Shown: piece by piece, positions 157-14,574 of the stretch
Layout of the letters: each line of letters opens with the position of its first letter
Position numbering within the stretch: the stretch's first letter is position 1
Assembly: GCA_964014485.1 (NCBI GenBank)
Contig: CAXHAT010000035.1
Location: forward strand, 1-49,083
From: an uncultured Deferribacteres bacterium
Lineage (GTDB): Bacteria; Zhuqueibacterota; Zhuqueibacteria; Zhuqueibacterales; Geothermadaptataceae
DNA: 49,083 nucleotides
Direction: 5' to 3'
Translations under genes and position numbers: made by a program
The notes under the pieces: generated by a model
Told to the model about the DNA's origin: nothing
The model's database searches: none
The model's input: only the letters and a program-made list of their open reading frames with translations

Positions 157-2187
157 ATGGAAGAACCAAAAGAAAACAGCGTTTCGCAGTCATCCAGATT
201 CCTACAAGCTTGCGCCGGATGCGAAACTGATCAAACGCCGATCTGGATGATGCGGCAGGCTGGGCGCTACATGCCGGAATACCGTGCGATTCGCGAGCGC
301 CGAACCATGCTCGAGGTGATTAATTCGCCGGAGCTTTCCGCTGAAATCACCTTGCAGCCCATTGAAAAATTCGGCTTCGACGCCGCGATTATTTTCTCGG
401 ACATCCTCCCGCCGTTGGTGGGCATGGGGCTGGATTTGACTTATGAAAAAGGCGAAGGCCCGGTCATTCACAATCGCCTCGACGACGCAAATTCCATCGA
501 TCTTTTGGCAACCCCGCCCGCCGCCGAAACCATGTCCGGCACGCTCGAAGCGATCCGGCTGGTGACCAAAGAACTCACCCTGAGCAACGTACCGCTGATC
601 GGCTTTGCCGGAGCGCCGTTTACGCTGGCGAGCTACGCAATCGAAGGCGGCGGCAGTAAAAATTACGCCCGGACGAAGGCGCTCATGTACCGGGAGCCCG
701 CCGCATGGCAGCGCTTGATGGACAAGCTCGCGACCGTGCAAGCGGATTACTTGATCGCGCAAGCCAAAGCGGGCGCTTCGGCATTGCAATTGTTCGATTC
801 GTGGGCCGGGCTAGCGCTTGGGAAAGACGATTACGTCCGCTTTGTGCAGCCTTACAATCGCAAGATTTTCGAAGCCGTCAAGCGCCGCACAAACGTTCCG
901 CTCATCAATTTCAGCACCGGCACTTTTGCTTATCTCGAAGAAGTGCAAGCAGCGGGCGGGGACGTGATTGGCGTCGATTGGCGTATGCCGCTGGGCGAAG
1001 CTTGGCAAAAAATTGGTTTTGAAACGCCGATCATGGGCAATCTTGATCCAATCGCATTGCTCGCGCCCTGGCCGGAATTGAAAGCGCGCATCGACGACGT
1101 TCTTGAGCAAGCCGCCGGGCGACCGGGGCACATTTTTAACCTGGGTCACGGCATTTTGCCCAGCACGTCGATGGAAAATGTCCGGCGAACAATCGACTAC
1201 GTTCGCGAAAAAACGTCTCGCGCTTCTAGCGGCGTTTCCCCAAAAGTGAAAAAATCTCCAAAACCGCGTCTCGGCGTCTTGATGATGGCCTATGGCGGCC
1301 CGAACTCGCTGGACGAAATCCCCGGTTATCTCGCCGACATCCGCAGCGGCCGTCCGACCACGCCGGAAGTGCTCGAAGAAATCACCAACAACTACACAAA
1401 AATCGGCGGCAAGTCGCCGTTGCTTGATTTTACGCAAGCGCAAGTCGATGCCGTCGCCGCGCATTTTGGCGAGGACGTCAAATTTTATCTCGGCATGCGC
1501 CACTGGTCGCCGTGGATTGAAGATGCGGTCGGAGACATGATCGCCGACGGAATCACGCACGCCGTCAGCATGGTGCTCGCGCCGCATTTCAGCAAATTGA
1601 GCATCGCGAAATACCAGGACAAAATCGCGGCTGGGTTGAAAATGCACCGCGGCGAAATTGCATTTGATCACATTATGAGCTACCACGACGCGCCAAAATA
1701 CATTCGCGCCCTTGCCAAGCGCGTGCGCGCCGGATTCGATCATTGGCCGCCGGAAGAGCGGGGCGACGTTCACGTCGTTTTCAGCGCGCACAGCCTGCCG
1801 GAACGCATTCTGAAAATGGGCGATCCTTACGATAGCCAGTTGCGCGAGACGGCAAAATTGGTCGCCCGGGCGGCGGAGCTTCGTGACGATCAATGGTCGT
1901 GGAGCTATCAATCCGCCGGACGCAGCCCCGAGCCGTGGCTGGGGCCGCAGCTTGAAGATTATCTGCCGGAATTGGCGCAAAAAGGCGTGAAAAAAGTCGT
2001 CTCCATTCCCGTCGGATTTGTGTGCGACCATGTCGAAATTCTTTTCGATATTGACATTGAAGCGCAAAACGCGATCAAGGACACGGGCATGACGCTCGTA
2101 CGCCCGGAAGCGCTCAATACCGATCCGCTTTTTATCGAACAATTGGCGGATTTGATCAAAGAACGAATTGAAAAAATAAAACCTTAA
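157..2187 (+). CDS. hemE-hemH: Fusion of uroporphyrinogen decarboxylase (HemE) and ferrochelatase (HemH/CpfC)
   Basis: N-half has the HemE motifs PIWMMRQAGRYMPEY, DAAIIFSDIL and HIFNLGHGI. After a K/S/P-rich linker, the C-half has the ferrochelatase motifs LMMAYGGP, FSAHSLP, WLGP and GFVCDHVEILFDID. One open frame, no internal stop. Confidence 0.93.
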   Translation: MEEPKENSVSQSSRFLQACAGCETDQTPIWMMRQAGRYMPEYRAIRERRTMLEVINSPELSAEITLQPIEKFGFDAAIIFSDILPPLVGMGLDLTYEKGEGPVIHNRLDDANSIDLLATPPAAETMSGTLEAIRLVTKELTLSNVPLIGFAGAPFTLASYAIEGGGSKNYARTKALMYREPAAWQRLMDKLATVQADYLIAQAKAGASALQLFDSWAGLALGKDDYVRFVQPYNRKIFEAVKRRTNVPLINFSTGTFAYLEEVQAAGGDVIGVDWRMPLGEAWQKIGFETPIMGNLDPIALLAPWPELKARIDDVLEQAAGRPGHIFNLGHGILPSTSMENVRRTIDYVREKTSRASSGVSPKVKKSPKPRLGVLMMAYGGPNSLDEIPGYLADIRSGRPTTPEVLEEITNNYTKIGGKSPLLDFTQAQVDAVAAHFGEDVKFYLGMRHWSPWIEDAVGDMIADGITHAVSMVLAPHFSKLSIAKYQDKIAAGLKMHRGEIAFDHIMSYHDAPKYIRALAKRVRAGFDHWPPEERGDVHVVFSAHSLPERILKMGDPYDSQLRETAKLVARAAELRDDQWSWSYQSAGRSPEPWLGPQLEDYLPELAQKGVKKVVSIPVGFVCDHVEILFDIDIEAQNAIKDTGMTLVRPEALNTDPLFIEQLADLIKERIEKIKP

Positions 2188-2239
2188 CGCAGAGTCGCAA
2201 AGAACGCGGAGAAAGAGTGGAGTGAATGTTTGCTCGATC

Positions 2240-2311
2240 TGGAGTATTGGAATAATGGATTGTTGGCTTTGTTTTTCCATCAATCCAATTATCCAACATT
2301 CCAATACTCCA
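2240..2311. repeat. Palindromic element built from tandem 8-mers (GGAGTATT/GGAATAAT... and their complements)
   Basis: ggagtatt-ggaataat-ggattgtt faces ccatcaat-ccaattat-ccaacatt-ccaatact; 14-bp perfect arms; second copy at 24832-24910. Confidence 0.75.
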
Positions 2312-2358
2312 TGAAAAGCGTTTGCTCTGCGGCAAATCGATGATAAAATTTTTGAGAA

Positions 2359-3741
2359 ATGAAACCCTTTGACTGTGTGATCATTGGCGGGGGAATCACA
2401 GGACTGGCGGCGGCGCACAGGCTGAAAACGCTGCGCCCGGACGCTTCGTTCTTGCTGCTCGAATCGGGTTCGCATTTGGGCGGAAAAATCGTGACGGAAT
2501 CCGTGAACGGTTTTACAATCGAAGCCTCCGCTGATTCGTTTCTTTCGCGCAAGCCCGAAGCCGTCGCGCTGGCGGAAGAACTCGGCCTGCTCGACCGCCT
2601 GCAAAGTCCAAAACCGGAAAATCGGCAAAGCTGGGTACTGCGCTGTGGAAAACTGCACAAAATCCCCGAAGGCTTGACCGGCCTGATTCCCGCCAATCTC
2701 GAAGCGCTGACCAACAATACTCTCCTTTCCGCGGACGCCGTTGCGCGAATTAAAGCCGAAACCGAAGTCCCGCCCGCCGCTCCAAAAGCCGACGAGAGCG
2801 TCGCTGATTTTATCACTCGGCGCATGGGGCGAGAAGCTTTTGAAAATCTGATCGAGCCGCTGATGGGCGGCATTTTCGGCGGGCGTGCTGATCTTCTGAG
2901 CATAAACGCCACTTTTCCGCAACTGAGAAATCTTGAGCAAAAATACGGCAGTCTCTTGCTCGGCTTGAGCGAAAACGGCAACGGTGCCGCGCTGGGCGTC
3001 AACGGCAAACTGCCGCCGTTTCTTAGTTTTAAAGGCGGCATGACCGAATTGATCGCAGCTTTGCAAACGCAAATCGGGGAAGAAAATATCCGTTGCAACG
3101 CACTGGTCGAATCCGTCGAAGCGCTGGGCGGGAAATATAAAATTTCGCTCAAAAACGCCCGGCAAGCGATCAACGCCAAATCGATTTTGCTCACGACGCC
3201 TGCTTTCACCACAGCGGAGCTTTTGCGGTCGCTTGACCTTGAACTCAGCGACGCGCTGAAAGCAATTCCTTACAGTTCGAGCGCCATCGTGACCTTGGCC
3301 TACGATGAAAAACGCCTCCCCCGCAAGCCGGACGGCTACGGCTACATCATTCCAAGAATCGAAGAACGAAACGTTTTAGCTTGCACCTGGACTTCAGCAA
3401 AATGGGAAAATCGTGCGCCGGAAGGCAAGGCGCTGTTTCGCGTTTTTCTTGGCCGCTTTGGGGACAAAATCGATGAAATTGAAGACGCTGCGCTCAAAAA
3501 GTTAGCCCTGGAAGAATTGCGAGAGACGCTCTCCATTGACGCAAACCCGGAAATTGCCAAAATTCAGCGCTGGCCGCACGCCATGCCGCAATACACGCTT
3601 GGACATCTTGATCGAATTCAAAAGATCGAGCGACTTGCAAAACCGCACCCTGGCTTAGCGCTGGCCGGAGCTTATTTTCACGGCGTCGGCGTCCCCGACT
3701 GCATCCGCGAAGGCCGAAAAGCGGCGGAAAGTTTGGTTTAA
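2359..3741 (+). CDS. hemY: HemY-type coproporphyrinogen/protoporphyrinogen oxidase
   Basis: FAD-binding IIGGGITGLAAA, GGKIVT, WPHAMPQY and GVGVPDCIREG; lies in the heme cluster. Confidence 0.93.
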   Translation: MKPFDCVIIGGGITGLAAAHRLKTLRPDASFLLLESGSHLGGKIVTESVNGFTIEASADSFLSRKPEAVALAEELGLLDRLQSPKPENRQSWVLRCGKLHKIPEGLTGLIPANLEALTNNTLLSADAVARIKAETEVPPAAPKADESVADFITRRMGREAFENLIEPLMGGIFGGRADLLSINATFPQLRNLEQKYGSLLLGLSENGNGAALGVNGKLPPFLSFKGGMTELIAALQTQIGEENIRCNALVESVEALGGKYKISLKNARQAINAKSILLTTPAFTTAELLRSLDLELSDALKAIPYSSSAIVTLAYDEKRLPRKPDGYGYIIPRIEERNVLACTWTSAKWENRAPEGKALFRVFLGRFGDKIDEIEDAALKKLALEELRETLSIDANPEIAKIQRWPHAMPQYTLGHLDRIQKIERLAKPHPGLALAGAYFHGVGVPDCIREGRKAAESLV

Positions 3742-3955: not shown

Positions 3956-5239
3956 ATGCATAAAACTTCAAAATCAAAAGCTCTGTTTGAAAAAGCCCGT
4001 CAACTTTTGCCGGGCGGTGTGAATTCGCCGGTGCGCGCATTCGGCGGCGTAGGCGGCGAGCCGATTTTTTTTGATAACGCTGAGGGCGCTTATCTAATCG
4101 ACGTGGACGGCAACCGCTACGTCGACTACGTTTTGTCTTGGGGGCCGCTGATCTTGGGTCACGCCCACCCCGATGTGGTCGAAGCCGTGCAAAAGGCGGC
4201 GGCGCGCGGCACGAGCTACGGCGCGCCCAATCCGTACGAAATCGAGTTGGCGGAATTGATCATGCAATTTATGCCCAACCTCGAAATGTTGCGCTTTGTC
4301 AACTCCGGCACCGAAGCGACGATGAGTGCGCTGCGTTTGGCGCGCGCTTTTACCGGGCGTGAGAAAATCATCAAATTTGAAGGCAACTATCACGGTCACG
4401 CGGATATGCTGCTGGTTTCGGCGGGTTCCGGCATTGCCACGCTTGGCTTACCCAACTCTCCCGGCGTGCCCAAAAGCGCCGTCGCCGACACATTGACGGC
4501 GAATTTCAATGATCTTGATTCGGTGGAAAAAATTTTTGAAGCCTGCAAAAACGAAATCGCCGCGATAATTGTTGAGCCGGTCGCCGGAAACATGGGCCTA
4601 GTTCCGCCGACGGAAGGCTTTTTAGAAGGCCTGCGAGAATTGGCGACGGCGAACGACGCGCTGCTGATTTTTGACGAGGTCATGACCGGATTCCGCGTAC
4701 ATCCCGGCGGCGCGCAAACGCTCTACAACGTGCAGCCGGACTTAACAGCGCTCGGCAAAGTCATCGGCGGCGGACTCCCCGTCGGGGCTTACGGCGGCAA
4801 GCGGGAAATCATGGAAATGGTCGCGCCGCTGGGGGCGATGTACCAAGCGGGAACTTTGTCGGGAAATCCTTTAGCGATGGCGGCGGGCATTGCCACCCTG
4901 CGCGGCCTGACGCGAGACGGCGTTTGGGAAAAAATGGCGGCGCTCGGGGAGCAACTCGACGCCGGATTAAAAGCGGCGGCGGAAGCGCACAACATCCCGG
5001 TTTTTCAGGCGCGCGTTGGCACGATGCAAGGCCTGTTTTTTACCGACCAACCCGTCACCGACTACGCCTCAGCCAAACGTTGCGACACGGATCGCTTCGC
5101 CAAATTCTTCTACGCCATGCTCAAGCGCGGCGTTTACCTCGCCCCGTCGCAGTTTGAAGCGGGGTTTCTTTCCACTGCTCATACCGGCAAAGAAATCGAA
5201 AAAACCGTTCAAGCCGCTGAAAAAAGTTTTGAAGGGTAA
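3956..5239 (+). CDS. hemL: Glutamate-1-semialdehyde 2,1-aminomutase
   Basis: [35 protein letters not shown]-lysine [15 protein letters not shown] and [10 protein letters not shown]. Confidence 0.97.
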
Positions 5240-5308
5240 CTTTCCTTTACTCGAAAATCTTGTATATTGATTATCTGAAAAAGCATACACATCGCGTGAA
5301 GAAGCGGT

Positions 5309-5707
5309 ATGAGTTTTTTTGTCTACTTTCAAATTGATCGGCAGCTTCCAAAGGAACAAGCTGAAATGTTGGCATCTCACATTTCGGAAACTTCCGGTTT
5401 TTTTCTATGGGCGAACCATGGCTGGTTTGCCAAGACCGCCAATAGTTTCGTGACAACTGACAGTGGGGATTTGTTTACGGGCCAAGGTAACTTAAAGCCA
5501 CAACCAAACATCGCATCTCAAATAAAAGCAGTTGTTAAGACTCTTCTAAACACCAGTTCATTTGTCATTTTTCAAGCCGCTTGGGGAGGAGAAGAAAAAG
5601 ACAATCAATGGGCGATTGATGTAAATGAAGCAAGATTCGCTGAACTGTTGGATGGTGATAGATTAAAAGAGAAAACGCCATACAGAATTACCCTTTCAAA
5701 AGGATGA
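5309..5707 (+). CDS. Hypothetical protein (132 aa), AT-richer than the hem genes
   Basis: ATG-started ORF between hemL and the TA pair; no motif recognised. Confidence 0.6.
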   Translation: MSFFVYFQIDRQLPKEQAEMLASHISETSGFFLWANHGWFAKTANSFVTTDSGDLFTGQGNLKPQPNIASQIKAVVKTLLNTSSFVIFQAAWGGEEKDNQWAIDVNEARFAELLDGDRLKEKTPYRITLSKG

Positions 5708-5855
5708 GAATTGAAGGCGAGTCTGAGTTAACGCAAGTTCGTACAAACATGATTTTATCCGACAATGACGCCCAATGTAAACCAATACAAACCGTAATAT
5801 TCCTTTTCATGCCAAGACGGCGTCGAATCAGATGGTGATGATAGAAATAAACTCT

Positions 5856-5890
5856 TGCGATTGTACAAAAAAGCAGCGATTGTTTGTGCA
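5856..5890 (+). promoter_or_regulatory. Probable promoter/operator of the TA module
   Basis: TTGTACAA palindrome at 5861-5868 and a TGTGCA variant at 5885-5890 upstream of the GAGGAG RBS; TGTACA is the known YefM operator core. Confidence 0.5.
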
Positions 5891-5913
5891 TGACAACAAA
5901 GAGGAGAAATTGG

Positions 5914-6186
5914 ATGCTGCAAATTTCAACCAATGCGCTTCGCGCTAATATGGCAGAGACGTTCAAGAAAGTTGACGCTGAATCGGAGACATTACTGGTA
6001 AAGCGAAAAGATGATAAAAATATGATCGTTTTACCTGAGCGAGAATATAACGCTCTCGCCGAGACGGCGTATCTTCTGGCTTCACCGGCAAATGCAAAAG
6101 CGCTGTTAGAAGCGCTAGTAGAAATGGAGCAGGGTGAAGCGGTAGAAATGACAATTGACGAACTGAAGCAAGAAGTCGGACTTTGA
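5914..6186 (+). CDS. yefM: Phd/YefM-family antitoxin
   Basis: LRANMAETFKKV...YNALAETAYLLASPANAKALLEA matches the YefM pattern; RBS GAGGAG at 5901; overlaps the toxin start. Confidence 0.9.
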   Translation: MLQISTNALRANMAETFKKVDAESETLLVKRKDDKNMIVLPEREYNALAETAYLLASPANAKALLEALVEMEQGEAVEMTIDELKQEVGL

Positions 6187-6434
6187 AATTAAAGTTTACA
6201 CCGCATTTTTTAAAACAACTGAAAAGTCTGAAGAAATCTGAAAAGAAAGCTGCGGAGCGAGTAATATTGTTAATCGAAGCAATCCGGGAAAATCCATTTG
6301 AAGGGCTCGGAAAACCGGAAAAGTTGAAGTACAGGAAAAACATATATTCCCGCAGAATCACAAGTAAGCATAGACTCGTTTACTGCATCGAGGGTGATGA
6401 GATCACCTTTTTGCAATGCCGGTATCATTATTGA
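6183..6434 (+). CDS. yoeB: Txe/YoeB-family mRNA interferase toxin
   Basis: NPFEGLGKPEKLKY, YSRRITSKHRLVY and C-terminal CRYHY; TTG start overlaps the antitoxin stop. Confidence 0.93.
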   Translation: MKLKFTPHFLKQLKSLKKSEKKAAERVILLIEAIRENPFEGLGKPEKLKYRKNIYSRRITSKHRLVYCIEGDEITFLQCRYHY

Positions 6435-6520
6435 AAACAAGGTTCGAGTCTTGATGAATGTGAGTCCGGTTTCACAACGTGCATCTGGATCTAACGGCCT
6501 CCAACTGCTCGCCCTCTGCC

Positions 6521-6760
6521 GTTTTTCAGGCGCGCGCAGGCACGATGCAAGGCCTGTTTCTCACCGACCAGCCCGTCACCGACTACGCCTCCGCCAAACT
6601 TTGCGACACGGACCGCTTCGCCAAATTCTTCCACGCCATGCTCAAGCGCGGCGTCTACCCCGCCCCGTCGCAATTTGAAGCGGGGTTTCTTTCCACCGCT
6701 CACACTAGTAAGGAAATCGAAAAAACCGTTCAAGCCGCTGAAGAGAGTTTTGGGCAGTAG
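6521..6760 (+). pseudogene. hemL: 5'-truncated duplicate of the hemL 3' end (copy 2, 79 codons plus stop)
   Basis: Colinear with 5000-5239; 70 of 79 aa identical, many synonymous changes; no start codon or N-terminal part. Confidence 0.93.
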
Positions 6761-6888
6761 GGTTCGTTTTGTTTAACCGTAAGTACAAAACTCTCCCTGT
6801 TTTCTCGCGAAATCAAAAGCGATTTTTTTCGAGCAAGCGATGCTGGTTTACCACGTCGGCTTGTCGTTTTAGCCTGCAACAGTTTCTC

Positions 6889-6917
6889 TTGACATTGCTT
6901 GTCTTGCCTGATAGGTT
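6889..6917 (+). promoter_or_regulatory. Sigma70-like promoter pointing into the cassette block
   Basis: TTGACA-N17-TAGGTT. Confidence 0.55.
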
Positions 6918-7063
6918 GCTTAATTCGGGAACGTATATTTTATATTGAGCTTGAAACTGAAACCCTTGGCGAAATCGTGTAACGAACCGCCGTCCACAAA
7001 AATAGTAGAACGCCTTACACGGAAGGATAAGACAAATGCTTTGAAAACCGGGTTTGCGGGAAT

Positions 7064-7189
7064 ATTAAGCTGGAAAGATGCAGGCCTTGTCCGCTCGCCA
7101 GACTTCCAATATTGGAGATTTTCACGACTTCTTTTCATACTGGAAATACGACGGTCGCCGTCTCGGCAGCTTAATGAGCTGTCCTGGGC
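7064..7189 (+). other. Degenerate attC-like remnant
   Basis: ATTAAGCTG (7064) pairs with CAGCTTAAT (7167), resembling L''/L' boxes; inner stem ttccaatattg/catactggaa; R' reduced to CCTGGGC and R'' not recognisable. Confidence 0.35.
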
Positions 7190-7218
7190 TGCAACGAAAT
7201 TTCTTTCAATAGAAAAAT

Positions 7219-8172
7219 ATGAAACTACAATTAAACTCCGAGAAGCCTACGTTACATACAAATCTATCGTATAGAGATTTCTTTAATAAGTACAACCCGT
7301 TTACAGATGGACAAGCTTTTATTGCTACGTACAGCTTTAGATTTTCCAATTTTGATTTTTGGTCTAAACTTGAGCCTTTGTCTGTTTTGTACGTTTCTGA
7401 AAAATACGAGAGAGAAGCGCAAGCATTTTTACAGCGTTTTCCTCTTTTTGAAGTTTACAGTGTGCCTAAACTGCATACAAAAGCAATATTTTTCAATGAT
7501 TCTGGAAGGTTGTTGTTGGGTAGTGAAAACTTATATGCATCAGAATCGCTGTTTTCAGAATTGATGGTTGAGCTGTCTATTGCACCGGAACAGAAAGAAG
7601 AAGTTGTTCAGATGGCTTTTCGGTCATTGAATGGAAAAATTCTTACATGCGAATATGGGTTATCCGATATCCGATTGAACCCAGACGGTTATCCATATTT
7701 GCCATGCGAGAAGGAGATAACTTATTGGGATTTGGTAGCGAGACGGATGACTCCAGGAGGAAAACGGCCAGACCCCGAGTTTCATAGTCCAAGCTATATT
7801 TATCATTTATTGGAATATGATGTTGGTGGAAAACGGCATATCTTAGCATTTAATAGGGGATATGCTTACATCGGTGATATAAGTGTTGAGTGTGCCAATT
7901 GGCTTTTAGAGAACTGTGAGTTGACCCAATATTCAACACAGGGAAACGGAATTATGGTATCAACAGCTAGTGATTTAATAGATACTTCTCCCCGCAAAGA
8001 TTATTTTCTAAATTATCATCCAGTTGCCAGAGAAAATCGAGCCACTAAAGCTTATTGGTTAGGAAAAGTCAAAAACCAAAGAATGCATGAAGAGTTGATA
8101 GAACCTATTTTGCGCAAGGATATTACGAGAAGAAAAATTATCCATCCAAAAGATCAGGCGACCCAACCCTAA
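7219..8172 (+). CDS. PLD (HKD)-superfamily nuclease-like protein with an unknown C-terminal domain
   Basis: LHTKAIFFNDSGRLLLGSENL...ELMV fits HxK...GSxN...E; AT-rich; its 3' end overlaps an attC R'' box. Confidence 0.6.
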   Translation: MKLQLNSEKPTLHTNLSYRDFFNKYNPFTDGQAFIATYSFRFSNFDFWSKLEPLSVLYVSEKYEREAQAFLQRFPLFEVYSVPKLHTKAIFFNDSGRLLLGSENLYASESLFSELMVELSIAPEQKEEVVQMAFRSLNGKILTCEYGLSDIRLNPDGYPYLPCEKEITYWDLVARRMTPGGKRPDPEFHSPSYIYHLLEYDVGGKRHILAFNRGYAYIGDISVECANWLLENCELTQYSTQGNGIMVSTASDLIDTSPRKDYFLNYHPVARENRATKAYWLGKVKNQRMHEELIEPILRKDITRRKIIHPKDQATQP

Positions 8173-8286
8173 TTGCACCTGACCTGCCTGACGATAGAGC
8201 GGTGCGCGGCACCAAAAGCCAAATCTGGCTGTGCTTCAAAATGTTTTATAGCCAACCCCGGCAGGAAGGTAAATATTTCATTATAT
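8161..8286 (+). other. Integron attC-like site (partly decayed)
   Basis: R'' ACCCAAC, 5-nt spacer, L'' TTGCACCT, cctgcc/ggcagg stem, L' AGGTAAA, 6-nt spacer, R' ATTATAT (one base from GTTATAT). Confidence 0.6.
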
Positions 8287-8321
8287 TTCATGGAATCTTC
8301 GTTTCAACTGGATCTTTTGAA

Positions 8322-9449
8322 ATGAGAAAGACGCGCACGCTTCAACGCTTTTTTCAACTTACAATACTCTTCGTGACGAGCACCGGGTGTTCAGCGGAAT
8401 ATCTCGAGGCTCCCGGCTCCGCAAACCAAACGCCAATCGAAAACGGAGACGGCTGGCAGACAGCCGCGCCGGCGAGCGTCGATCTTGATACGGCAAAACT
8501 CGCCCTCATCTATGATTTTATACAAAGCGATATTCACGAGGATTTCCACAGCCTCGTCGTTGTAAAAGACAAAAAACTGGTCATTGACCGATACTACAAC
8601 GGCTATGATCTCAACTCGACAAATGACATCAGATCCGCAACCAAAAGTATCACCTCTGCTCTGGTAGGCTTGGCGATAGAAGACGGATACATCGAAGGTC
8701 TCGATACAAAGATTCTGACGTTCTTGCAAGACTATGCCCCATTCGCTCATGATAGTCCCCAAAAACAAGCTGTCACGATAGAAAATCTGCTCACGATGGC
8801 TTCCGGATTTGATGCGAACGCCGACGATGCCGCATCGCCGGGCCATGAAGATCGTCTGTTTGAAGCGGACGATTGGATACGTTTTTGTCTGGACGTGCCC
8901 ATGGCAAACGAACCTGGCGAAGTCTGGGCGTATACGTCAATGAACACATTCCTTCTTGGAGCGATCATAGCCAAAGCCTCAAATGAGACATTGCAGGAAT
9001 ATTCGCATCGTCGGCTTTTTCAGCCGCTCGGTATGAAAAACTATCGATGGTCCACAACGCCGCGCGGCGATGTTATTGCTCAGGGTAATTTTTTTATCAC
9101 TGCGCGTGACATGGCGAAAATAGGGTCGCTGTATCTAAATGATGGAAGATGGGGTGAAGCGCAGGTTTTGCCTGCGGATTGGGTCAAAGAGTCGCTCAAA
9201 GGACGGTATCCCGTCTCCTGGGACGGCTATGATCAATACGGATATCAATGGTACACGCACTCACTTTCAATTCGCGGCAAAAGTGTGAAATACTATCTTG
9301 CGTCTGGAAACGGAGGCAATAAAATCTACGTGATCCCCGAACATCGCATGGTCGTTGCTATAGCGAGTTCTGGTTACAACAGAGGGCACAGCCATCCGAG
9401 GTCGCTTGCCATTTTGCGCATGTTGCTGCTCTCAGTGAATGAAACATAA
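8322..9449 (+). CDS. Serine hydrolase, beta-lactamase/AmpC-like family, probable lipoprotein
   Basis: SxxK in IRSATKS, LLTMASG, PGEVWAYTS, ARDMAKIG, YGYQW and ASGNGG; lipobox STGC; start reassigned to ATG 8322. Confidence 0.85.
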   Translation: MRKTRTLQRFFQLTILFVTSTGCSAEYLEAPGSANQTPIENGDGWQTAAPASVDLDTAKLALIYDFIQSDIHEDFHSLVVVKDKKLVIDRYYNGYDLNSTNDIRSATKSITSALVGLAIEDGYIEGLDTKILTFLQDYAPFAHDSPQKQAVTIENLLTMASGFDANADDAASPGHEDRLFEADDWIRFCLDVPMANEPGEVWAYTSMNTFLLGAIIAKASNETLQEYSHRRLFQPLGMKNYRWSTTPRGDVIAQGNFFITARDMAKIGSLYLNDGRWGEAQVLPADWVKESLKGRYPVSWDGYDQYGYQWYTHSLSIRGKSVKYYLASGNGGNKIYVIPEHRMVVAIASSGYNRGHSHPRSLAILRMLLLSVNET

Positions 9450-9544
9450 CCGCAGCATCGTGTTGACCCAGAACAGCTGGCGCTGTTTCGGGTCAAGGCA
9501 CGTTTTGCTGGCTGTTTTGGGCGCCACATGCGCAACCGTTATCG
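9444..9544 (+). other. Integron attC site (near canonical)
   Basis: R'' ACATAAC contains the upstream stop codon; 5-nt spacer; L'' CAT[C]GTGT pairs with L' CCACATG with an extra C at position 4; tg[a]cccagaacagc/gctgttttgggcg gives a second extra base; R' GTTATCG. Confidence 0.8.
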
Positions 9545-9609
9545 CACATTGTATGTCTGGCGAATCGCCTTACCGATGGAACTGAAAAAGATTGGAGTAG
9601 AAGGGAAAC

Positions 9610-11430
9610 ATGAAACGACCAATTCTTTTCCTATTCGCGATACCTTTCGTCTGGCTGCTGCTCGGCTGCAGCGCCAATTCTCCAGAAGTTAACCAACAAT
9701 CGACCAAGCCTCCTCCATTCACCCTCTCCCCCGCCGCATGGCCTGACGGCGAAGTAGCGCATTATCTCGCCATGGACGATCGCAGCTTTCCGGATAACCC
9801 CGTGGCAATGGGCGGCAATGGGGCCGTTACGACCACATACCACGCCGCAGCCTCGCGTGCTGGTCTCGAAGCCCTGCAGCAGGGCGGCAGCTCCGTCGAC
9901 GCCGCGATGACGACGGCGTTGACGCAAATTGCCTTGAATGCCGGGGCAGTGATCAGCTATTTCGGCATCATCAACATGATGCACTACGATGCGGCCTCGG
10001 GGGAAATGGTCAGCATGGACGCGACGTGGAATACGGTGCAGAACGAAACCGATCCTTCGTCGATTCCCAGAATGCAGTTGACCGGAGATATCAAAGACTT
10101 TTTCAAAGATCGTGAACTCAGCGGACGGACGGCGCTTGTCGGAGGGTTTATGAAAGGGGTGGAAGCAGCGCACAAAAGATACGGCAAACTGCCCTTCGCG
10201 CGATTGTTCGATCCAGCGATCTATTTTGCTGAAAACGGCTTCGCTCTGTCAAAAGCCACGTCACGATTTTTTGAGCAGCGCAAGAAAGCGCTGGAGCGGC
10301 TGCCTGAAACGCGAGCGACGATGCTAAAACTGGACGGCAGTCTTTACCAGGCCGGCGACCTATTCAAACAGACGACCTTGGCAAACACCTTAAAACAGAT
10401 TGCCGAAAATGGCGCGGACTACATGTATACAGGCCCCTGGGCTGAAAAAGCCATCGCCGCAATCCAGACGGAAGGCGGTAAAATGACGACGCGGGATCTC
10501 GCGGATTATGAAGTACAGTGGACACAGCCGATTCGCGCCAAGTACGGTGATTACGAAGTCGCTGTTCTCGGTCCTCCCGCGCAGGGATCGATCAACCTGA
10601 TTGAAGCGCTCAATCTGGCCCATGTGGCAAAGATACCGGAATTGGGGCACTGGTCGAAGAAAGCGGAGTCGCTGCGACGAATTTCGGATGTAACAAACAT
10701 GTTTGGCCTGTCTCTTTTGACGCCTTCTATAAAGGCCATGATCTATCCAGATCTCGATTTATCGAATGAATCGCGTTTAAAAATGGAGACCGCTAATGCC
10801 CTCTGGGAGCGTATGGAAAACGGCGCCAAAATCGTTCGGTATGCTGACAAGGCGCCAAAGCACTCGGACACGGTAGTTGCGATTGATCAATGGGGCAACA
10901 TGACTGCGGTCACACACTCGATCAACTGCGTCGTCTGGGGAGCGGAAGCTATTGTCGTGGACGGCGTGACGATCGGTGACCCTGCGTCTTTTCAGCAGGC
11001 GCAAATTGCCCAGGTCGGACCCGGGAAGCGTTTGCCTTCCCCAATCGAAGTCGGCGTCGTCAGCAGAAACGGCGTGCCGGTTCTGCCGTTTGCCTCGATG
11101 GCGACCGGGCTGCACCAGCAAACGGTACAGTCTCTGCTGAATTTTATCGCTTTTGACATGGACGCCAAGCAAGCAGTCGACGCGCCAGCGATCTTCTTAC
11201 CGAGGATCGATATATCTAATCCCCTGGCGCCGAAATATACTGTTCGCGTCATGCAGGGCGCGTTTCCTGAAAAGGTAAGGGAAGACAGCGGATTGCCGAT
11301 TCTTGCCCTGCCGGCGAGCGAGCGTCGCTATACCCAGGGATTATGGATTGCCATCCATCGTGATCCGGTCAGCGGAGAATTGCAAGCCGTCTCGCCGCCG
11401 TATGCCACCGGACGCGCTCTCGCCTACTAA
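9610..11430 (+). CDS. Gamma-glutamyltransferase-family Ntn hydrolase, lipoprotein
   Basis: GLEALQQGGSSVDAA, AHKRYGKLPFARLFDPAIYFAENGF, DLADYE, VAIDQWGNMTAVTHSIN and GPGKRLPS; lipobox LLGC. Confidence 0.88.
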   Translation: MKRPILFLFAIPFVWLLLGCSANSPEVNQQSTKPPPFTLSPAAWPDGEVAHYLAMDDRSFPDNPVAMGGNGAVTTTYHAAASRAGLEALQQGGSSVDAAMTTALTQIALNAGAVISYFGIINMMHYDAASGEMVSMDATWNTVQNETDPSSIPRMQLTGDIKDFFKDRELSGRTALVGGFMKGVEAAHKRYGKLPFARLFDPAIYFAENGFALSKATSRFFEQRKKALERLPETRATMLKLDGSLYQAGDLFKQTTLANTLKQIAENGADYMYTGPWAEKAIAAIQTEGGKMTTRDLADYEVQWTQPIRAKYGDYEVAVLGPPAQGSINLIEALNLAHVAKIPELGHWSKKAESLRRISDVTNMFGLSLLTPSIKAMIYPDLDLSNESRLKMETANALWERMENGAKIVRYADKAPKHSDTVVAIDQWGNMTAVTHSINCVVWGAEAIVVDGVTIGDPASFQQAQIAQVGPGKRLPSPIEVGVVSRNGVPVLPFASMATGLHQQTVQSLLNFIAFDMDAKQAVDAPAIFLPRIDISNPLAPKYTVRVMQGAFPEKVREDSGLPILALPASERRYTQGLWIAIHRDPVSGELQAVSPPYATGRALAY

Positions 11431-11462
11431 TCGGTAGCTACAAAAGTGTATTCGAAAAAAAG

Positions 11463-11582
11463 ATGGTCAAAATTCAGAAATCACTCGAAGCTGCAACTGT
11501 GATTGACGGACACAGCCATGTGCTCATCCCGCTCATCGAAGGCAAGATGAACATCGCCGTTCGTGGTCTGGACTTTTCTTGA
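11463..11582 (+). pseudogene. Possible N-terminal fragment of a membrane dipeptidase (M19)/amidohydrolase
   Basis: Translates MVKIQKSLEAATVIDGHSHVLIPLIEGKMNIAVRGLDFS*; VIDGHS resembles the first metal-binding motif; ends after 39 aa. Confidence 0.4.
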
Positions 11583-11634
11583 TATGCGGTGCGTCTCAGG
11601 ACGTTTTTTTGTTTTCGCTGCTGTTTTTTCACAG

Positions 11635-11897
11635 GCGAGAGCGAAAGCGCCTAACATACCTATTCTTCAAGCGCGTGTAGGCACGATGCAAGGCTTGTTT
11701 TTCACCGACCAACCCGTCACCGACTACGCCTCGGCCAAACTTTGCGACACAGACCGCTTCGCCAAATTCTTTCACGCCATACTCAAACGCGGAGTCTATT
11801 TCGCCCCTTCGCAGTTTGAAACAGGATTTCTTTCGATTGCGCACACCGGCATAGAAATCGAAAAACGATCCAGGCCGCTGAAGAAAATTTTGAATAA
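11635..11897 (+). pseudogene. hemL: 5'-truncated duplicate of the hemL 3' end (copy 3) with a 1-nt frameshift
   Basis: [40 protein letters not shown] aligns to hemL 4973-5239; one A is missing at ...gaaaaacgatccag; the original frame ends in FE-TAA at 11897. Confidence 0.92.
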
Positions 11898-12330
11898 AAA
11901 AATCGCTTCTTGAGTTTCTTACAATACCAAAGCGATTTTTTGCGCGCAAAGTGATATTCCCCAGGCAGTCTTATAATCGTAACCTGCAAAGCTTCCTCGA
12001 CATCTTCGCCTGCCCAATAATTTGAGTGTAAATGAATTTGCCTGATTCAGAACACTTATTTTGCAATGAAGCGCAATCATCAAACATAGAAACCGCTTAC
12101 AATCAAAAGCTGATGCGCTTGACTCCAATTCTCGGATAGCTTCCAAGTAAAAGCTGCGTCTGGCATATTCCCGGGGCGCTTAAATTTGCACGCCGATCTT
12201 TCGTCGCCGGAAACTATCTCCGGTTTTTGACTCGTGAACGTTCATTCCCGTCAATTGTCGAAAGCTCTCGGCATTCTTCGCCAGTGTTTCGTTGTTTGTT
12301 CTGAATCGACGAAGCGTGTTGGAACACAAA

Positions 12331-14574
12331 ATGAAAAATCAAATACAAATGCGGCGCTTTCTAAGCTTCGCGTGTTTTGCGGCTGTGGGGTTAACTTCTC
12401 TCATTAGCGCTCAAACAAAGTACAGCGTTGTGTCTGGCCGGGTGACGGTTGGCGACGGTCAGCCGATGATCGGAGTGAATGTTTTTGTCGTCGGGTCGTT
12501 TCACGGCGGGGTGAGCGATGCGGACGGGCGGTTTTCGTTTAAAACGAATCGTCTTGGCGCGCAGAAAATTCAGGCAAAATTTATCGGCTACGAGACGGCG
12601 GAACGAACAATCCGTTTGGCTGCTGGAGATACGGTTTTTGTTGAATTTTCTTTAAAGAAAACGCTGCTCATGCTGGAAGAAGCCGTCGTTACAGCGAGTG
12701 CATTTACCACCGGCGATCAGAAAGGCGTCACCCTCGGCAGCATGGACGTGGTCACCACGCCGGGGGCGGCGGCGGACGTTTTTCTGGCGATCAAGACGTT
12801 TCCGGGCGTGGCGATGGTGGATGAAGGCTCCGGCTTGTTCGTGCGCGGCGGCGACGTCACGGAAACAGTGACTTTACTCGACCAGGCAACCGTGGCGCAT
12901 CCCTACAAATATGAATCGCCGACCGGCGGGGTTTTTGGTACGATCTCGCCGTTTTTGGTCAAAGGCACGTTCTTCTCCTCCGGCGGATTTTCCGCCAAGT
13001 ACGGCAATGCGCTCTCCGGCGTTCTGGCGATGGAGAGCGAGGATATGCCGGAGCGCACGGAATACACGCTCGGCGTTGGCCTGGCCGCCGGTTCCGCCGG
13101 GCTCAACACCAAATTGGCGAACGACAAATTCGGTCTGCGTTTTTCGGGCAATCGCAGCTCGACGAGCGCGATGTTTCGCCTCAACGGGCGCAGAAACGAT
13201 TTCACCACCACGCCGAAAGGAGTCGATGGTAATCTCAGCCTGATTTACCGCTACTCGCCGAGCGGACAAATCAAATTTTTCAATTTTGGCTCTAACTCGC
13301 ACTTGGGCGTGCGTGTGGCGCAGCCCTCGTTCGACGGAATTTTTGAAAGCGAGGAAAACAACGCGCTGCACAACATTCAATGGCGCGAAATTTTTTCCGG
13401 CTGGTTGGCCAAAACGAGCCTTTCGCTCAACCGCTTTGAATCGCAAACAAAATTCGGCAATCTTGATCTCGATCAACGCGACCGAACCGCCAAACTCCGC
13501 CTGGATTTGGAGAAAGAACTGGCGGAGAAATTGAATCTGGTGACCGGCTTTGAAATCGAGCGCGTCAGCAATCGTTTCACCGGCGAAACGCCGTTTTACA
13601 ATGACGTGTTAGACGAGAACGCACTGGTTTACAGTTTCGACGAAGATTACGCGACAGTGCGCCCAGGAGCGTGGGTTGAATCGGACGTTCAGGTGAATCG
13701 GCGCATTTTTGCGAAGCTGGGCTTGCGCGCGGATTACCATAATTTGGCCGAGCAAACGATTCTCGATCCTCGGTTTTCATTGCGTTATCAAATGACGAAA
13801 TCGCGCAATGTGCGTTTTTCCTGGGGACGGTACCAGCAGTTTCCGGGCGCTTTTCTTTTCAACGCCGAGAGCGGCAATCCTAATTTGCGGGCGCAGCGCG
13901 CCGAACATCGCATCGTGACATTTGAGCAAAATTTCAAGCATGGCCAACTGCGTGTGGAAGCTTACGATAAAAAATATGACGGGCTGGCGCTGCGTCACAG
14001 TGACTTAAATTACGCCAACATCGGCGACGGCTACTCGCGCGGTCTGGATTTTTTCCTGCGTTATGGCGCTTTCCTGCAAACGCCCGTGGACGGCTGGATT
14101 TCGTACAGCTTTTTACGCTCGGAAAGACGGCTTGTGCGAGACGAAGCGGGAGATTTTTTTTATGAAAATGCGCGCTCCAATTTTGACATTACCCACAACT
14201 TGACCGTGGTCGCCAAAACGCGCATCTGGGAAACGCTTTCGTTTGGCGCGACGTGGCGCTACGCGACGGGCCGCCCGGTCACGCCGATTATTGCGGCGGA
14301 ATTGCAGCAGCCGGAAAATTTTTATCTGCCGATTGAAGGGCCGGTGAACAGCGAGCGCTTGCCCGGATTTCAGCGACTCGATCTCAATCTCAGCTATTAC
14401 CAATCGTTCGGTTACGGGAACGCGTTCATTTTCTACGTCGCTTTGTCGAACGCGCTGAATCGAAAAAATATTTTGGCGTACGATTACAGCTTCGATTATT
14501 CAACCCGCACGCCGCGTGAGACCAATTACCAACGGTTTGTTTATTTTGGCTTTACAGTGACGATCTTGAATTGA
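12331..14574 (+). CDS. TonB-dependent receptor with an N-terminal carboxypeptidase-regulatory-like domain
   Basis: Signal peptide; SGRVT...GVNVFV...SDADGRF; plug motifs GLFVRGG and GGFSAKYGNALSGVL; barrel motifs LGLRADY, LDPRFSLRY and RLDLNLSY. Confidence 0.9.
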   Translation: MKNQIQMRRFLSFACFAAVGLTSLISAQTKYSVVSGRVTVGDGQPMIGVNVFVVGSFHGGVSDADGRFSFKTNRLGAQKIQAKFIGYETAERTIRLAAGDTVFVEFSLKKTLLMLEEAVVTASAFTTGDQKGVTLGSMDVVTTPGAAADVFLAIKTFPGVAMVDEGSGLFVRGGDVTETVTLLDQATVAHPYKYESPTGGVFGTISPFLVKGTFFSSGGFSAKYGNALSGVLAMESEDMPERTEYTLGVGLAAGSAGLNTKLANDKFGLRFSGNRSSTSAMFRLNGRRNDFTTTPKGVDGNLSLIYRYSPSGQIKFFNFGSNSHLGVRVAQPSFDGIFESEENNALHNIQWREIFSGWLAKTSLSLNRFESQTKFGNLDLDQRDRTAKLRLDLEKELAEKLNLVTGFEIERVSNRFTGETPFYNDVLDENALVYSFDEDYATVRPGAWVESDVQVNRRIFAKLGLRADYHNLAEQTILDPRFSLRYQMTKSRNVRFSWGRYQQFPGAFLFNAESGNPNLRAQRAEHRIVTFEQNFKHGQLRVEAYDKKYDGLALRHSDLNYANIGDGYSRGLDFFLRYGAFLQTPVDGWISYSFLRSERRLVRDEAGDFFYENARSNFDITHNLTVVAKTRIWETLSFGATWRYATGRPVTPIIAAELQQPENFYLPIEGPVNSERLPGFQRLDLNLSYYQSFGYGNAFIFYVALSNALNRKNILAYDYSFDYSTRTPRETNYQRFVYFGFTVTILN

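Follow-up and report, generated by a model that had tools for sequence, protein, structure and literature searches.

The question raised by this locus is how the 3' end of hemL came to be present three times, with each extra copy closing a block of accessory genes. The locus lies in the window (the whole stretch of DNA analysed, 49,083 nucleotides), a 49 kb contig of an 8.4 Mb metagenome-assembled genome in 465 contigs. A first-pass annotation had read the arrangement as accretion of cargo, in which new tails of hemL had pushed the older ones downstream, and had proposed hemL as the target of integrative elements whose integrase had been lost or acted in trans, or else a homology-driven process. 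The features are collected in Table 1.

Table 1. Features of the hemL locus (positions in the window).
Feature	Position	Strand	Basis or remark
Upstream haem cluster as a whole	157-3741	+	Native context of hemL
hemE-hemH fusion	157-2187	+	Pfam URO-D + Ferrochelatase; native context
Protoporphyrinogen-oxidase-like flavoprotein	2359-3741	+	Pfam Amino_oxidase; native context
Intact hemL (glutamate-1-semialdehyde 2,1-aminomutase)	3956-5239	+	NCBIfam TIGR00713, Pfam Aminotran_3
Tail copy 1	4979-5248	+	Working hemL 3' end; homology starts at 5000 (to copy 2), 4979 (to copy 3)
Block A	5249-6520	+	1272 bp, GC 0.42
132-aa hypothetical	5309-5707	+	Block A
YefM antitoxin	5884-6186 (ORF)	+	Likely ATG at 5914; PF02604 (PhdYeFM_antitox), 49.9 bits; block A
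YoeB toxin	6183-6434	+	PF06769 (YoeB_toxin), 90 bits; block A
Tail copy 2	6521-6769	+	Orphan hemL 3' end; open frame to TAG 6758-6760
Non-coding stretch behind copy 2	6787-6918	+	Homologous to 11900-12024
Block B cargo	6919-11640	+	Repeat-enclosed block 4.9 kb
PLD-like 317-aa protein	7219-8172	+	GC 0.35-0.40; block B
Beta-lactamase-fold serine hydrolase	8202-9449	+	Pfam; block B
Dispersed repeat (~98 bp)	9445-9542		Block B
Gamma-glutamyltransferase (GGT)	9610-11430	+	Pfam; block B
39-codon ORF	11463-11582	+	Identity unconfirmed; block B 3' end
Tail copy 3	11641-11897	+	Orphan hemL 3' end; frameshifted; TAA 11895-11897
Stretch behind copy 3	11900-12024	+	Homologous to 6787-6918
TonB-dependent receptor gene	12292-14574		Next after the stretch 11900-12024

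The gene preceding the blocks was intact, as annotated: TIGR00713 matched it with 637.7 bits over residues 6-426 of 427 (NCBIfam profile search), and hem genes also lay 5' of hemL in four relatives. The repeat search and BLAST recovered the three copies of its 3' end (5000-5248, 6521-6769 and 11641-11897; ~240-260 bp), the only ones in the 8.4-Mb assembly. Aligned in register, the copies occupied 5000-5248, 6521-6769 (89% over 249 nt) and 11662-11910 (77% ungapped); by BLAST, copy 1 was 91% identical to copy 2 (5000-5231 vs. 6521-6752) and 84% identical to copy 3 (4979-5233 vs. 11641-11894). In hemL coordinates, the starts of the two orphan copies differ by 21 nt (7 codons), within the ~9 codons first estimated. 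Copy 2 is open to its own stop; in copy 3 a 1-nt deletion at ~11861 destroyed the frame 12 codons ahead of the TAA. The residues that distinguish the orphans from hemL (SAKL, FFH and AEE vs. SAKR, FFY and AEK) were found as annotated, AEE in copy 3 requiring the frameshift to be read through.

Pfam matches bore out YefM-YoeB, the serine hydrolase and the GGT as cargo, and the 132-aa hypothetical of block A had no family match (Pfam, NCBIfam and PADLOC among the searches). The putative PLD nuclease retained an HxK...GSxN (HKD-like) motif, and PLDc_2 clusters were its closest in the ESM-Atlas (a lead only), but it had zero matches in Pfam, NCBIfam and PADLOC. The 39-codon ORF, formerly called a peptidase fragment, had no Pfam match and may be a truncated gene. 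Block B also includes ~130 bp of diverged hemL-downstream sequence: the stretches behind copies 2 and 3 were 71.5% identical over 123 aligned columns (score 28 vs. 10.75 ± 1.4, maximum 16, in 300 shuffles). This sequence and a possibly truncated end ORF would be expected if block B were a chromosomal fragment from a relative.

Pairwise dN/dS between the hemL tails was 0.12-0.18 with dS of 0.32-0.77 (0.18 for copy 1 vs. copy 2; 0.12 for the orphan-orphan pair, copy 2 vs. copy 3), and for this reason they are not local duplicates; each was shaped as the working end of the gene in its own lineage, and they were brought together later, which fits the displacement of older tails by new ones. The same held for 14 tail/orphan pairs of this genome when pooled: pS was 0.311 and pN 0.062, a ratio of 0.198 that departed from neutrality (binomial P 3.5e-44) and from the ~0.55 of free decay of one copy after local duplication (P 5.5e-19), and 10 of the 14 pairs had P<0.05 individually. 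As a positive control, the variable and template repeats (VR/TR) of a DGR on contig C343 (this same genome has two true DGRs) gave a pN/pS of 3.09, and 19 of the 25 mismatches fell on template adenines. Since differences between the tail copies are mostly synonymous (pooled pN/pS 0.20), the opposite of the DGR signature, the copies are alleles whose divergence took place in separate lineages, where each served as a working gene end, and not local duplicates decaying in place. Neither GC3 nor the direction of AT/GC differences marked any copy as donor-derived.

The locus is one case of a genome-wide pattern, in which a cassette stands behind a gene and is followed by a leftover copy of the gene end. 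Whole-genome self-comparison (same-strand repeat pairs of 100-450 bp, at least 80% identity, spaced 200-8000 bp) yielded 72 pairs, 19 of them classed as “gene 3' end plus downstream orphan”. After removal of C135 (a DGR), C79 (a false call), C1 (unexamined) and C54 (an ambiguous paralogous domain), and addition of C60, there were 16 tail-duplication events at 15 genes: hemL (twice) and 14 others, which included nuoF, valS, uvrC, FtsX/MacB permeases, ABC ATPases, an EamA transporter, an acyl-CoA dehydrogenase, a GMC oxidoreductase and an Lhr-like helicase. Toxin or antitoxin families were recognised in half of the inserts (8 of 16: BrnT/BrnA, RelE twice, PIN, PIN_3, YoeB/YefM, HicA and HEPN), and these inserts were single copy in the genome; none of the 16 inserts carried a recombinase. 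GC was 0.40-0.49 in the inserts vs. 0.50 for the genome, and four contained repeat elements (C95, MITE-like; valS; acyl-CoA dehydrogenase; hemL block B).

The tails measured 107-281 bp, and homology ended between -22 and +24 nt of the stop codon in 13 of 14 pairs, a class defined in part by a repeat end no more than 30 nt from the ORF end. The end was sharp (0 to +8) in the youngest pairs (nuoF, 97.6%; PQQ, 94.4%; macB, 93.9%; ftsX, 91%). In eight additional pairs the stop codon lay over 30 nt within the repeat, and block B at hemL reaches ~160 nt beyond the stop. Across 17 pairs, none of the four junction types showed an enriched 6- or 7-mer, and the cassette ends had no general hairpin.

The explanation that we favour, and to which we give an even chance, is recombinase-free insertion anchored on gene homology, with displacement of the old tail downstream. 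The two orphan hemL tails would then be scars of two successive insertions. Recombination anchored on homology inside hemL would have brought in the foreign DNA, either through one homologous crossover and an illegitimate second junction (as in homology-facilitated illegitimate recombination, HFIR, a “C-terminal displacement”) or through a single crossover with a circular piece bearing a hemL tail (insertion-duplication), which would give the same product. The working gene would thereafter end in one tail allele, followed by the cargo and by a second allele from another lineage, the working end perhaps being the incoming one. Block B (4.9 kb) was probably inserted first and block A (YefM-YoeB) second, because of the nesting and because copy 3 is the sole broken copy. 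The process would not be specific to hemL, having acted at at least 15 genes of this genome, and what survives is mostly toxin-antitoxin modules, plausibly because addiction works against their loss when the repeats on either side recombine. It is not obvious how a random illegitimate junction would give the exact abutment on the stop codon in the youngest events, or why every tail is below 300 bp in length; either feature might also be the mark of a defined but unknown mechanism of insertion. Two further points count against this explanation. The collections searched held no close relative (best tail match 68% in amino acids among genome and metagenome contigs, 60% within the family), and the Logan contigs of three runs described below showed neither a deletion nor an empty-site joint, which carries little weight in either direction since such contigs drop rare variants.

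Another explanation, which we consider rather unlikely, is insertion with long target duplication on the spot, in which break repair would copy the preceding 100-280 bp and place the cassette at the stop codon, the differences between copies arising after insertion. The geometry is as published in PMC2853133 (direct repeats of 46-423 bp around addiction-type cargo that lacks a mobility gene), the sharp boundary in the youngest pairs suits an insertion point and not a random junction, and the nuoF pair is still nearly identical. However, identical birth and free decay of the orphan predict a pN/pS of at least ~0.55, against the pooled value and the still lower one of the hemL orphan-orphan pair. 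A later swap of the working tail for alleles of other lineages would be needed, and would be hard right up to the stop codon if the donor had no cassette. The published pairs are, moreover, near-identical (e.g. 417/423), vs. 80-98% here.

Decayed tyrosine- or serine-integrase elements with a replacement hemL 3' end, stacked in tandem and with integrases lost or in trans, are improbable. They would explain direct repeats of the target's 3' end with orphan starts so close together, the tandem stacking and the low-GC cargo, and an integrase could conceivably be supplied in trans by the 8 PF00589 matches on other contigs. The contig itself has no PF00589 match and the window ORFs scanned no recombinase family, as first annotated; block A is just 1.3 kb; and the 14 other genes, with unrelated inserts, would need many site specificities although their junctions share no motif. 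Elsewhere, none of 160 hemL loci from other genomes and metagenomes had an integrase-bearing element bounded by a second tail. A tail repeat, which counts as an independent case for the favoured explanation, was seen in one, an Acidobacteriia MAG (216 bp, 88% identical, pS 0.275, pN 0.075, ending at +2 of the stop), enclosing a single 290-aa gene with a weak Rpn-family match. In Caldilineaceae, integrases adjoin hemL, beside the same large repeat-rich stretch in 5 of 5 loci inspected, which we read as a conserved neighbourhood; the three genomes searched lacked a second tail. The literature found did not name hemL as an attachment site. Of the original interpretation, nested accretion, tails of non-local origin and the lack of an integrase stand, and homology-driven insertion fits best among the options offered, but hemL as a dedicated integrase target is not supported.

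An assembly artefact, with hemL alleles of co-occurring strains stitched into one contig, is very improbable. The copies do differ as alleles of related populations do, the genome is a metagenome bin, and a fourth hemL tail variant occurred at low depth in run X1. Nevertheless, independently built Logan contigs from three runs of one study (X1, X2 and X3), checked at the hemL junctions only, crossed four of the five without difference: hemL to block A (X3, 5140-5290), block A to copy 2 (X1, 5293-6569; X2, 6441-6713), copy 2 to block B (X1, 6556-7091; X3, 6703-6853) and copy 3 to downstream (X1, 11639-12010). Block B to copy 3 (~11590-11639) had no bridging piece among the contigs listed. In addition, a k-mer graph edge from cassette end to mid-gene requires the junction in reads, and the same structure, with a complete cassette every time, is found at 15 genes. 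DGR-like template and variable repeats, of negligible probability, would have the same geometry (gene 3' end, small gene, orphan copy) and the two real DGRs look alike initially, but this reading was refuted by mismatches that lie at third codon positions and are not adenine-specific, the opposite of the C343 control, and neither a reverse transcriptase nor an Avd gene was found near hemL.

Among known systems, e14 in icd, ICESt1/3 and integrase-less remnants at fda, and tRNA-gene island arrays restore the 3' end of their target and stack in tandem, by means of a site-specific integrase and a fixed core site. The hemL locus shares with them a replacement 3' end next to the cargo, an orphan original downstream and tandem accretion with internal repeats, but has no integrase or core motif, and many unrelated genes are targets. 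Insertion-duplication (a Campbell-type single crossover with circular DNA carrying a gene 3' fragment) leaves an intact gene, the insert and a duplicated 3' fragment; in the laboratory it yields exactly the product seen here, while a natural source of circles and their transfer between cells are hypothetical.

Restriction-modification modules were reportedly found by Nobusato et al. in 2000 to insert with long target duplication. As described in a later study (Furuta, Abe and Kobayashi 2010, PMC2853133), they resemble the present inserts in being selfish addiction-type modules without a mobility gene, bounded on both sides by direct repeats of unique target sequence, tens to hundreds of bp long, some overlapping a gene 3' end. 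Here, in contrast, the cargo is toxin-antitoxin and other genes, and the repeats comprise entire gene tails up to the stop codon, 2-20% diverged with a signature of purifying selection instead of near-identical.

C-terminal displacement and orphan arrays are known from rhs, cdiA and T6SS effector-immunity loci, for which HFIR was proposed (Kirchberger et al. 2017, PMC5361080, which cites Jackson 2009, Poole 2011 and Koskiniemi 2014 for them). In those systems the tail that arrives is a new toxin domain together with its immunity gene, and selection favours keeping the old immunity, whereas the tails here are orthologous, functionally equivalent ends of housekeeping genes and the cargo is an unrelated cassette behind the stop codon. 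In both, displaced 3' ends line up behind an intact gene, each retaining part of the conserved upstream sequence, the copies within one genome come from different lineages and not from local duplication, and successive events stack downstream with no recombinase.

Three hemL 3' ends, described in the first-pass annotation, were found in the window, a complete contig of 49,083 bp: one within hemL itself (copy 1) and two orphan tails downstream (copies 2 and 3), separated by two inserts (blocks A and B; see table). The residue differences among the copies listed in that annotation are also real. The working gene is intact (NCBIfam hemL, 637.7 bits, residues 6-426 of 427), and in its coordinates the starts of the two orphans differ by 21 nt. 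Copies 1 and 2 were 89-91% identical and copy 3 was 84% identical to either of them; at the protein level the tails showed 80-91% identity and are orthologous HemL C-termini. There was no fourth tail copy in the whole source assembly, a 97%-complete metagenome bin of 8.4 Mb in 465 contigs. The 317-aa protein of block B carries an HKD-like motif and its nearest ESM Atlas neighbours, a lead only, are PLDc_2-type; a profile search gave no match and the single-sequence AlphaFold model (pLDDT 37) was unusable. PADLOC gave no relevant match for the cargo proteins, Pfam found no methyltransferase in block B, and the Pfam scan of the window ORFs did not establish the identity of the 39-codon ORF.

Four of the five hemL junctions were spanned without mismatch by Logan contigs of three runs, all belonging to one study, and no listed Logan piece bridged the junction between block B and copy 3; this independent check covers hemL only, and by contigs rather than reads. 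The runs holding the window are labelled marine metagenome. Excised or empty joints were absent from the Logan contigs of the three runs, which cannot reveal rare forms.

Features of the hemL locus, the sixteen events and other repeats (C, contigs of the source assembly, C35 being the window; L, fetched loci)
Feature	Contig and position	Tail length, identity	Insert, content or remark
hemL	C35:3956-5239		intact gene
hemL tail copy 1	C35:5000-5248		within hemL
hemL tail copy 2	C35:6521-6769		orphan, open to its own TAG
hemL tail copy 3	C35:11641/11662-11897/11910		orphan, 1-nt deletion
Event: hemL, block A	C35:5249-6520	~249 bp, 89-91%	GC 0.42; hypothetical 132-aa protein of no known family, YefM-YoeB
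Event: hemL, block B	C35, to 11640	~255 bp, 84%	317-aa PLD-like protein, beta-lactamase-fold protein (hydrolase), GGT, 39-codon ORF
Stretch behind copy 2	C35:6787-6918		homologous to the stretch behind copy 3
Stretch behind copy 3	C35:11900-12024		homologous to the stretch behind copy 2
Event: nuoF	C33	126 bp, 97.6%	BrnT/BrnA
Event: PQQ-propeller gene	C95	177 bp, 94.4%	350 bp, mainly MITE-like repeat
Event: uvrC	C125		RelE family
Event: FtsX permease	C191		PIN and partner
Event: EamA transporter	C355		225-aa unknown protein
Event: MacB permease	C5		RelE and HTH/MqsA-like
Event: ABC ATPase	C44		DUF3800
Event: cytosine/purine permease	C60		DUF2283 pair; sole case with homology stopping 105 nt before the stop codon
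Event: BNR/sortilin protein	C66		PIN_3 and partner
Event: valS	C93		HicA and partner
Event: acyl-CoA dehydrogenase	C282		387 bp
Event: GMC oxidoreductase	C56		HEPN
Event: ABC ATPase	C91		DUF433 and partner
Event: Lhr-like helicase	C228		4.7 kb, two large genes
Head repeat, gyrA/parC-like gene	C79:286-1251 (L200)		MazF toxin and 99-aa partner
HicA or DUF433 genes beyond orphan tails	C5:23000-23500; C91:6900-7220; C106; C396
DGR 1	C343:687-3912 (L191)		CHAT and FGE-sulfatase target gene, bAvd, template repeat
DGR 2	C135:6600-10200 (L202)		Lcl_C target gene, bAvd, reverse transcriptase
Fourth hemL-tail variant in the same sample	C35:6622-6697		low-depth contig of one Logan run (X1); 10 differences from copy 2, unlike all three copies
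Intergenic element, ~98 bp	C35:9445-9542		between serine hydrolase and GGT genes; copies of 81-85% identity on C129 (two) and C44 (one)
Direct repeat, 139 bp	C35:28784-28922; C35:36213-36351		88% identity, 7.3 kb apart
hemE-hemH fusion	C35:157-2187		uroporphyrinogen decarboxylase and ferrochelatase in a single 676-aa ORF; separate stretches in four relatives
Inverted repeat, 30 nt	C35:2240-2311		arms 83% complementary around a 12-nt spacer; AT-rich gap between the fusion and the oxidase gene
Dispersed MITE-like repeat, ~230 bp	C95:12000-12230		holds the REP-like palindrome; more than 60 other places
Insert with 193-aa ORF	C1:112614-113213		RAYT/IS200-like by our reading of its sequence

The same architecture recurred throughout the genome. 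Self-comparison of the whole assembly, after curation, gave 16 events in 15 genes, two of them stacked at hemL, in which a long gene, itself intact, is followed by an insert and then by an orphan copy of its final 107-281 bp. Addiction modules were enriched among the inserts: explicit toxin or antitoxin Pfam families were present in 8 of 16, and DUF2283 and DUF433 are toxin-antitoxin-associated as well. The inserts had a GC content of 0.40-0.49 (0.50 for the genome); those bearing toxin-antitoxin genes were single-copy, and repeat elements were found in the PQQ-propeller, valS, acyl-CoA dehydrogenase and hemL block B inserts. One further candidate (C54, an Ig/T9SS sorting domain) was left out of the strict set, its “tail” being a paralogous domain present in multiple copies. 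Further HicA and DUF433 genes lie just beyond several orphan tails, and the tails of DUF433 genes are repeated in their turn, both of which suggest older stacked events. A mirror-image “head” case was seen on C79, where a gyrA/parC-like gene has its first 109 bp repeated upstream, in a repeat starting 5 nt before the start codon.

No site motif accompanied the events. Among 17 pairs no k-mer was enriched at any junction type, and the cassette ends had no general structure, the one strongly structured right end of 16 being a MITE palindrome. A REP-like palindrome (CCCAAACNGGAGTTTGGG) present at two junctions was rejected as a candidate signal: it occurs at 48 places in the genome and is unrelated to the junctions. 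Homology ended -22 to +24 nt from the stop codon in 13 of 14 pairs, sharply in the youngest, for a tail class that was partly selected by homology ending near the stop codon; in 8 other repeat pairs the stop codon lay more than 30 nt inside the repeat, and the hemL block B repeat extends ~160 nt beyond the stop. The main rival to recombination anchored on gene homology, “insertion with long target duplication”, which PMC2853133 describes for restriction-modification systems, is the better account of this stop-codon precision.

The divergence of the tails is less easily accommodated by target duplication, unless a later allele replacement is added, since it has been shaped by selection. For the hemL tails dN/dS was 0.18 between copies 1 and 2 and 0.12 for both 1-3 and 2-3 (dS 0.32, 0.66 and 0.77, respectively). 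Free decay of orphans after a local duplication would be expected to give ~0.55 between gene and orphan and ~1 between orphans; the observed ratios lie below these values, so most of the divergence arose in working genes of separate lineages. Judged by their substitutions, the hemL tails are thus alleles and not local duplicates. Fourteen non-DGR pairs taken together, C54 included although it had left the strict event list, gave pS 0.311 and pN 0.062 (ratio 0.198; P 3.5e-44 against neutrality and 5.5e-19 against 0.55). Individually, P was below 0.05 in 10 of the 14, the exceptions being PQQ, ftsX, C54 and valS, and all 14 showed pN/pS of 0.00-0.45 and third-position bias, with no adenine bias. 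The Lhr (pS 0.403, pN 0.132), GMC (0.284, 0.027) and C91 ABC ATPase (0.254, 0.128) pairs agreed with the pooled set. The control pair, from the diversity-generating retroelement on C343, had a pN/pS of 3.09, and 19 of its 25 mismatches fell on adenines of the template; a second such retroelement is on C135.

The ~130 bp behind copy 2 share homology with the sequence that follows copy 3 (71.5% identity, alignment score 28 vs. 10.75 +/- 1.4 in 300 shuffles), which indicates that block B came with or beside the hemL-downstream sequence of a relative. Tests for the incoming copy by GC3 and by the direction of AT/GC differences were uninformative. Searches of relatives (10 genomes of the family with DNA; 29 of the order with protein, including G020, which contributed one match) turned up no more than one hemL tail per genome, always a distant one (47-60% identity), and scans of genome and metagenome contigs found no close relative, the best tail match being 68% (aa).

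The absence of an integrase from the locus, noted in the first-pass annotation, was confirmed: PF00589 had 8 matches in the genome and none on this contig, and Pfam scans found no recombinase or transposase among the window ORFs and no recombinase family in the other 15 inserts. The idea that hemL is a special integrase target did not hold, given the same architecture genome-wide and the absence of any integrase-bearing element with a second tail from 160 hemL loci of other genomes and metagenomes (at least 1 kb downstream in 127). A search for integrases beside these hemL tails, made with a home-made profile, matched 11 ORFs, none of them in such an element. At seven Caldilineaceae/Chloroflexia loci (L026, L027, L047, L022, L059, L015 and L088) a gene for a tyrosine recombinase follows hemL at a distance of 0.1-2.4 kb; these were rejected as evidence, because the gene is followed by the same very large, highly repetitive stretch at all five loci inspected (L026, L047, L059, L015 and L088) and three of the genomes were searched without finding a second tail. 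We read this arrangement as a conserved neighbourhood. hemL was not found named as an attachment site in the open-access literature searched, and published integrase-target lists might name it.

A second hemL tail was present at only 1 of the 160 loci, in an unrelated Acidobacteriia MAG (L020), an independent example: a 216-bp repeat of 88% identity with homology to +2 of the stop (pS 0.275, pN 0.075), enclosing a single 290-aa gene (10246-11118) with a sub-threshold match to the Rpn family of recombination-promoting nucleases (22.7 bits, cut-off 52.1). This gene contains a glutamine/glycine-rich region of 12-nt tandem repeats. Two hits in hemL among 16 events have a chance of about 2%, by our own estimate for an assumed genome of ~7,000 genes, and, taken with L020, the double hit suggests that a conserved gene may be a better anchor. 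hemL is one instance of a wider process and not a special integrase site, though it was hit twice.

We infer, with moderate confidence, that the cassettes entered by host recombination anchored on gene homology. Either of two routes would yield the observed product: a homologous crossover in the gene combined with an illegitimate second junction landing some hundreds of bases before the stop, or a single crossover with a circular molecule carrying tail plus cassette. The first combination is the mechanism proposed in PMC5361080 for the “C-terminal displacement” of Rhs, CDI and T6SS proteins. Survivorship may explain why the repeats are short and diverged and why the cargo is toxin-antitoxin: an insert flanked by long, identical copies would be lost through them, a loss that addiction would penalise. 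A more speculative extension, which we rate as rather doubtful, is that toxin-antitoxin and other small cassettes carry a 100-280-bp conserved gene 3' end as a portable homology arm, which would let them enter any related genome by host homologous recombination without a recombinase, always behind an intact gene; the toxin would penalise repeat-mediated deletion, and conserved housekeeping genes such as hemL would be preferred docks growing into stacks.

The movement of chromosomal toxin-antitoxin modules and other small accessory genes in the absence of a mobility gene is poorly explained, and the open-access literature searched gave nothing relevant on toxin-antitoxin cassettes with long target duplication. 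A recombinase-free route, if true, would account in general for how such cassettes become scattered and stacked, with a conserved gene end as anchor, the gene left intact, a datable allelic scar and selective retention of addiction modules. Annotators could then look for a simple signature (intact gene, cassette, orphan tail), and studies of horizontal transfer would gain a natural clock as well as a marker of polarity. The practical message for hemL alone is more modest.

Among known systems, diversity-generating retroelements have a reverse transcriptase and adenine-specific mismatches, whereas hemL has no RVT or Avd nearby and its mismatches fall at third positions without A bias. Integron arrays have IntI and folded attC sites at the cassette ends; here there is no integrase and the ends are generally unstructured. 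Elements of the e14/icd and ICE/CIME kind share with the hemL blocks the direct repeats of the target 3' end, but carry a recombinase in or beside the element, which the hemL blocks lack, and have a fixed core and a recurrent target, unlike the present case (starts 21 nt apart, no k-mer, 0/160 loci). Long target duplications of restriction-modification systems have, as here, inserts below 20 kb, repeats of more than 30 bp of unique target and no mobility gene; their cargo is a restriction enzyme and methyltransferase, in place of the YefM-YoeB, hypothetical and PLD-like proteins of hemL. Displaced rhs/cdi/T6SS ends encode variable toxin domains with immunity genes, whereas the hemL tails are orthologous C-termini; in both, an intact gene is followed by displaced 3' ends with conserved upstream sequence, and the copies come from different lineages (at hemL, dN/dS 0.12-0.18; pooled 0.198).
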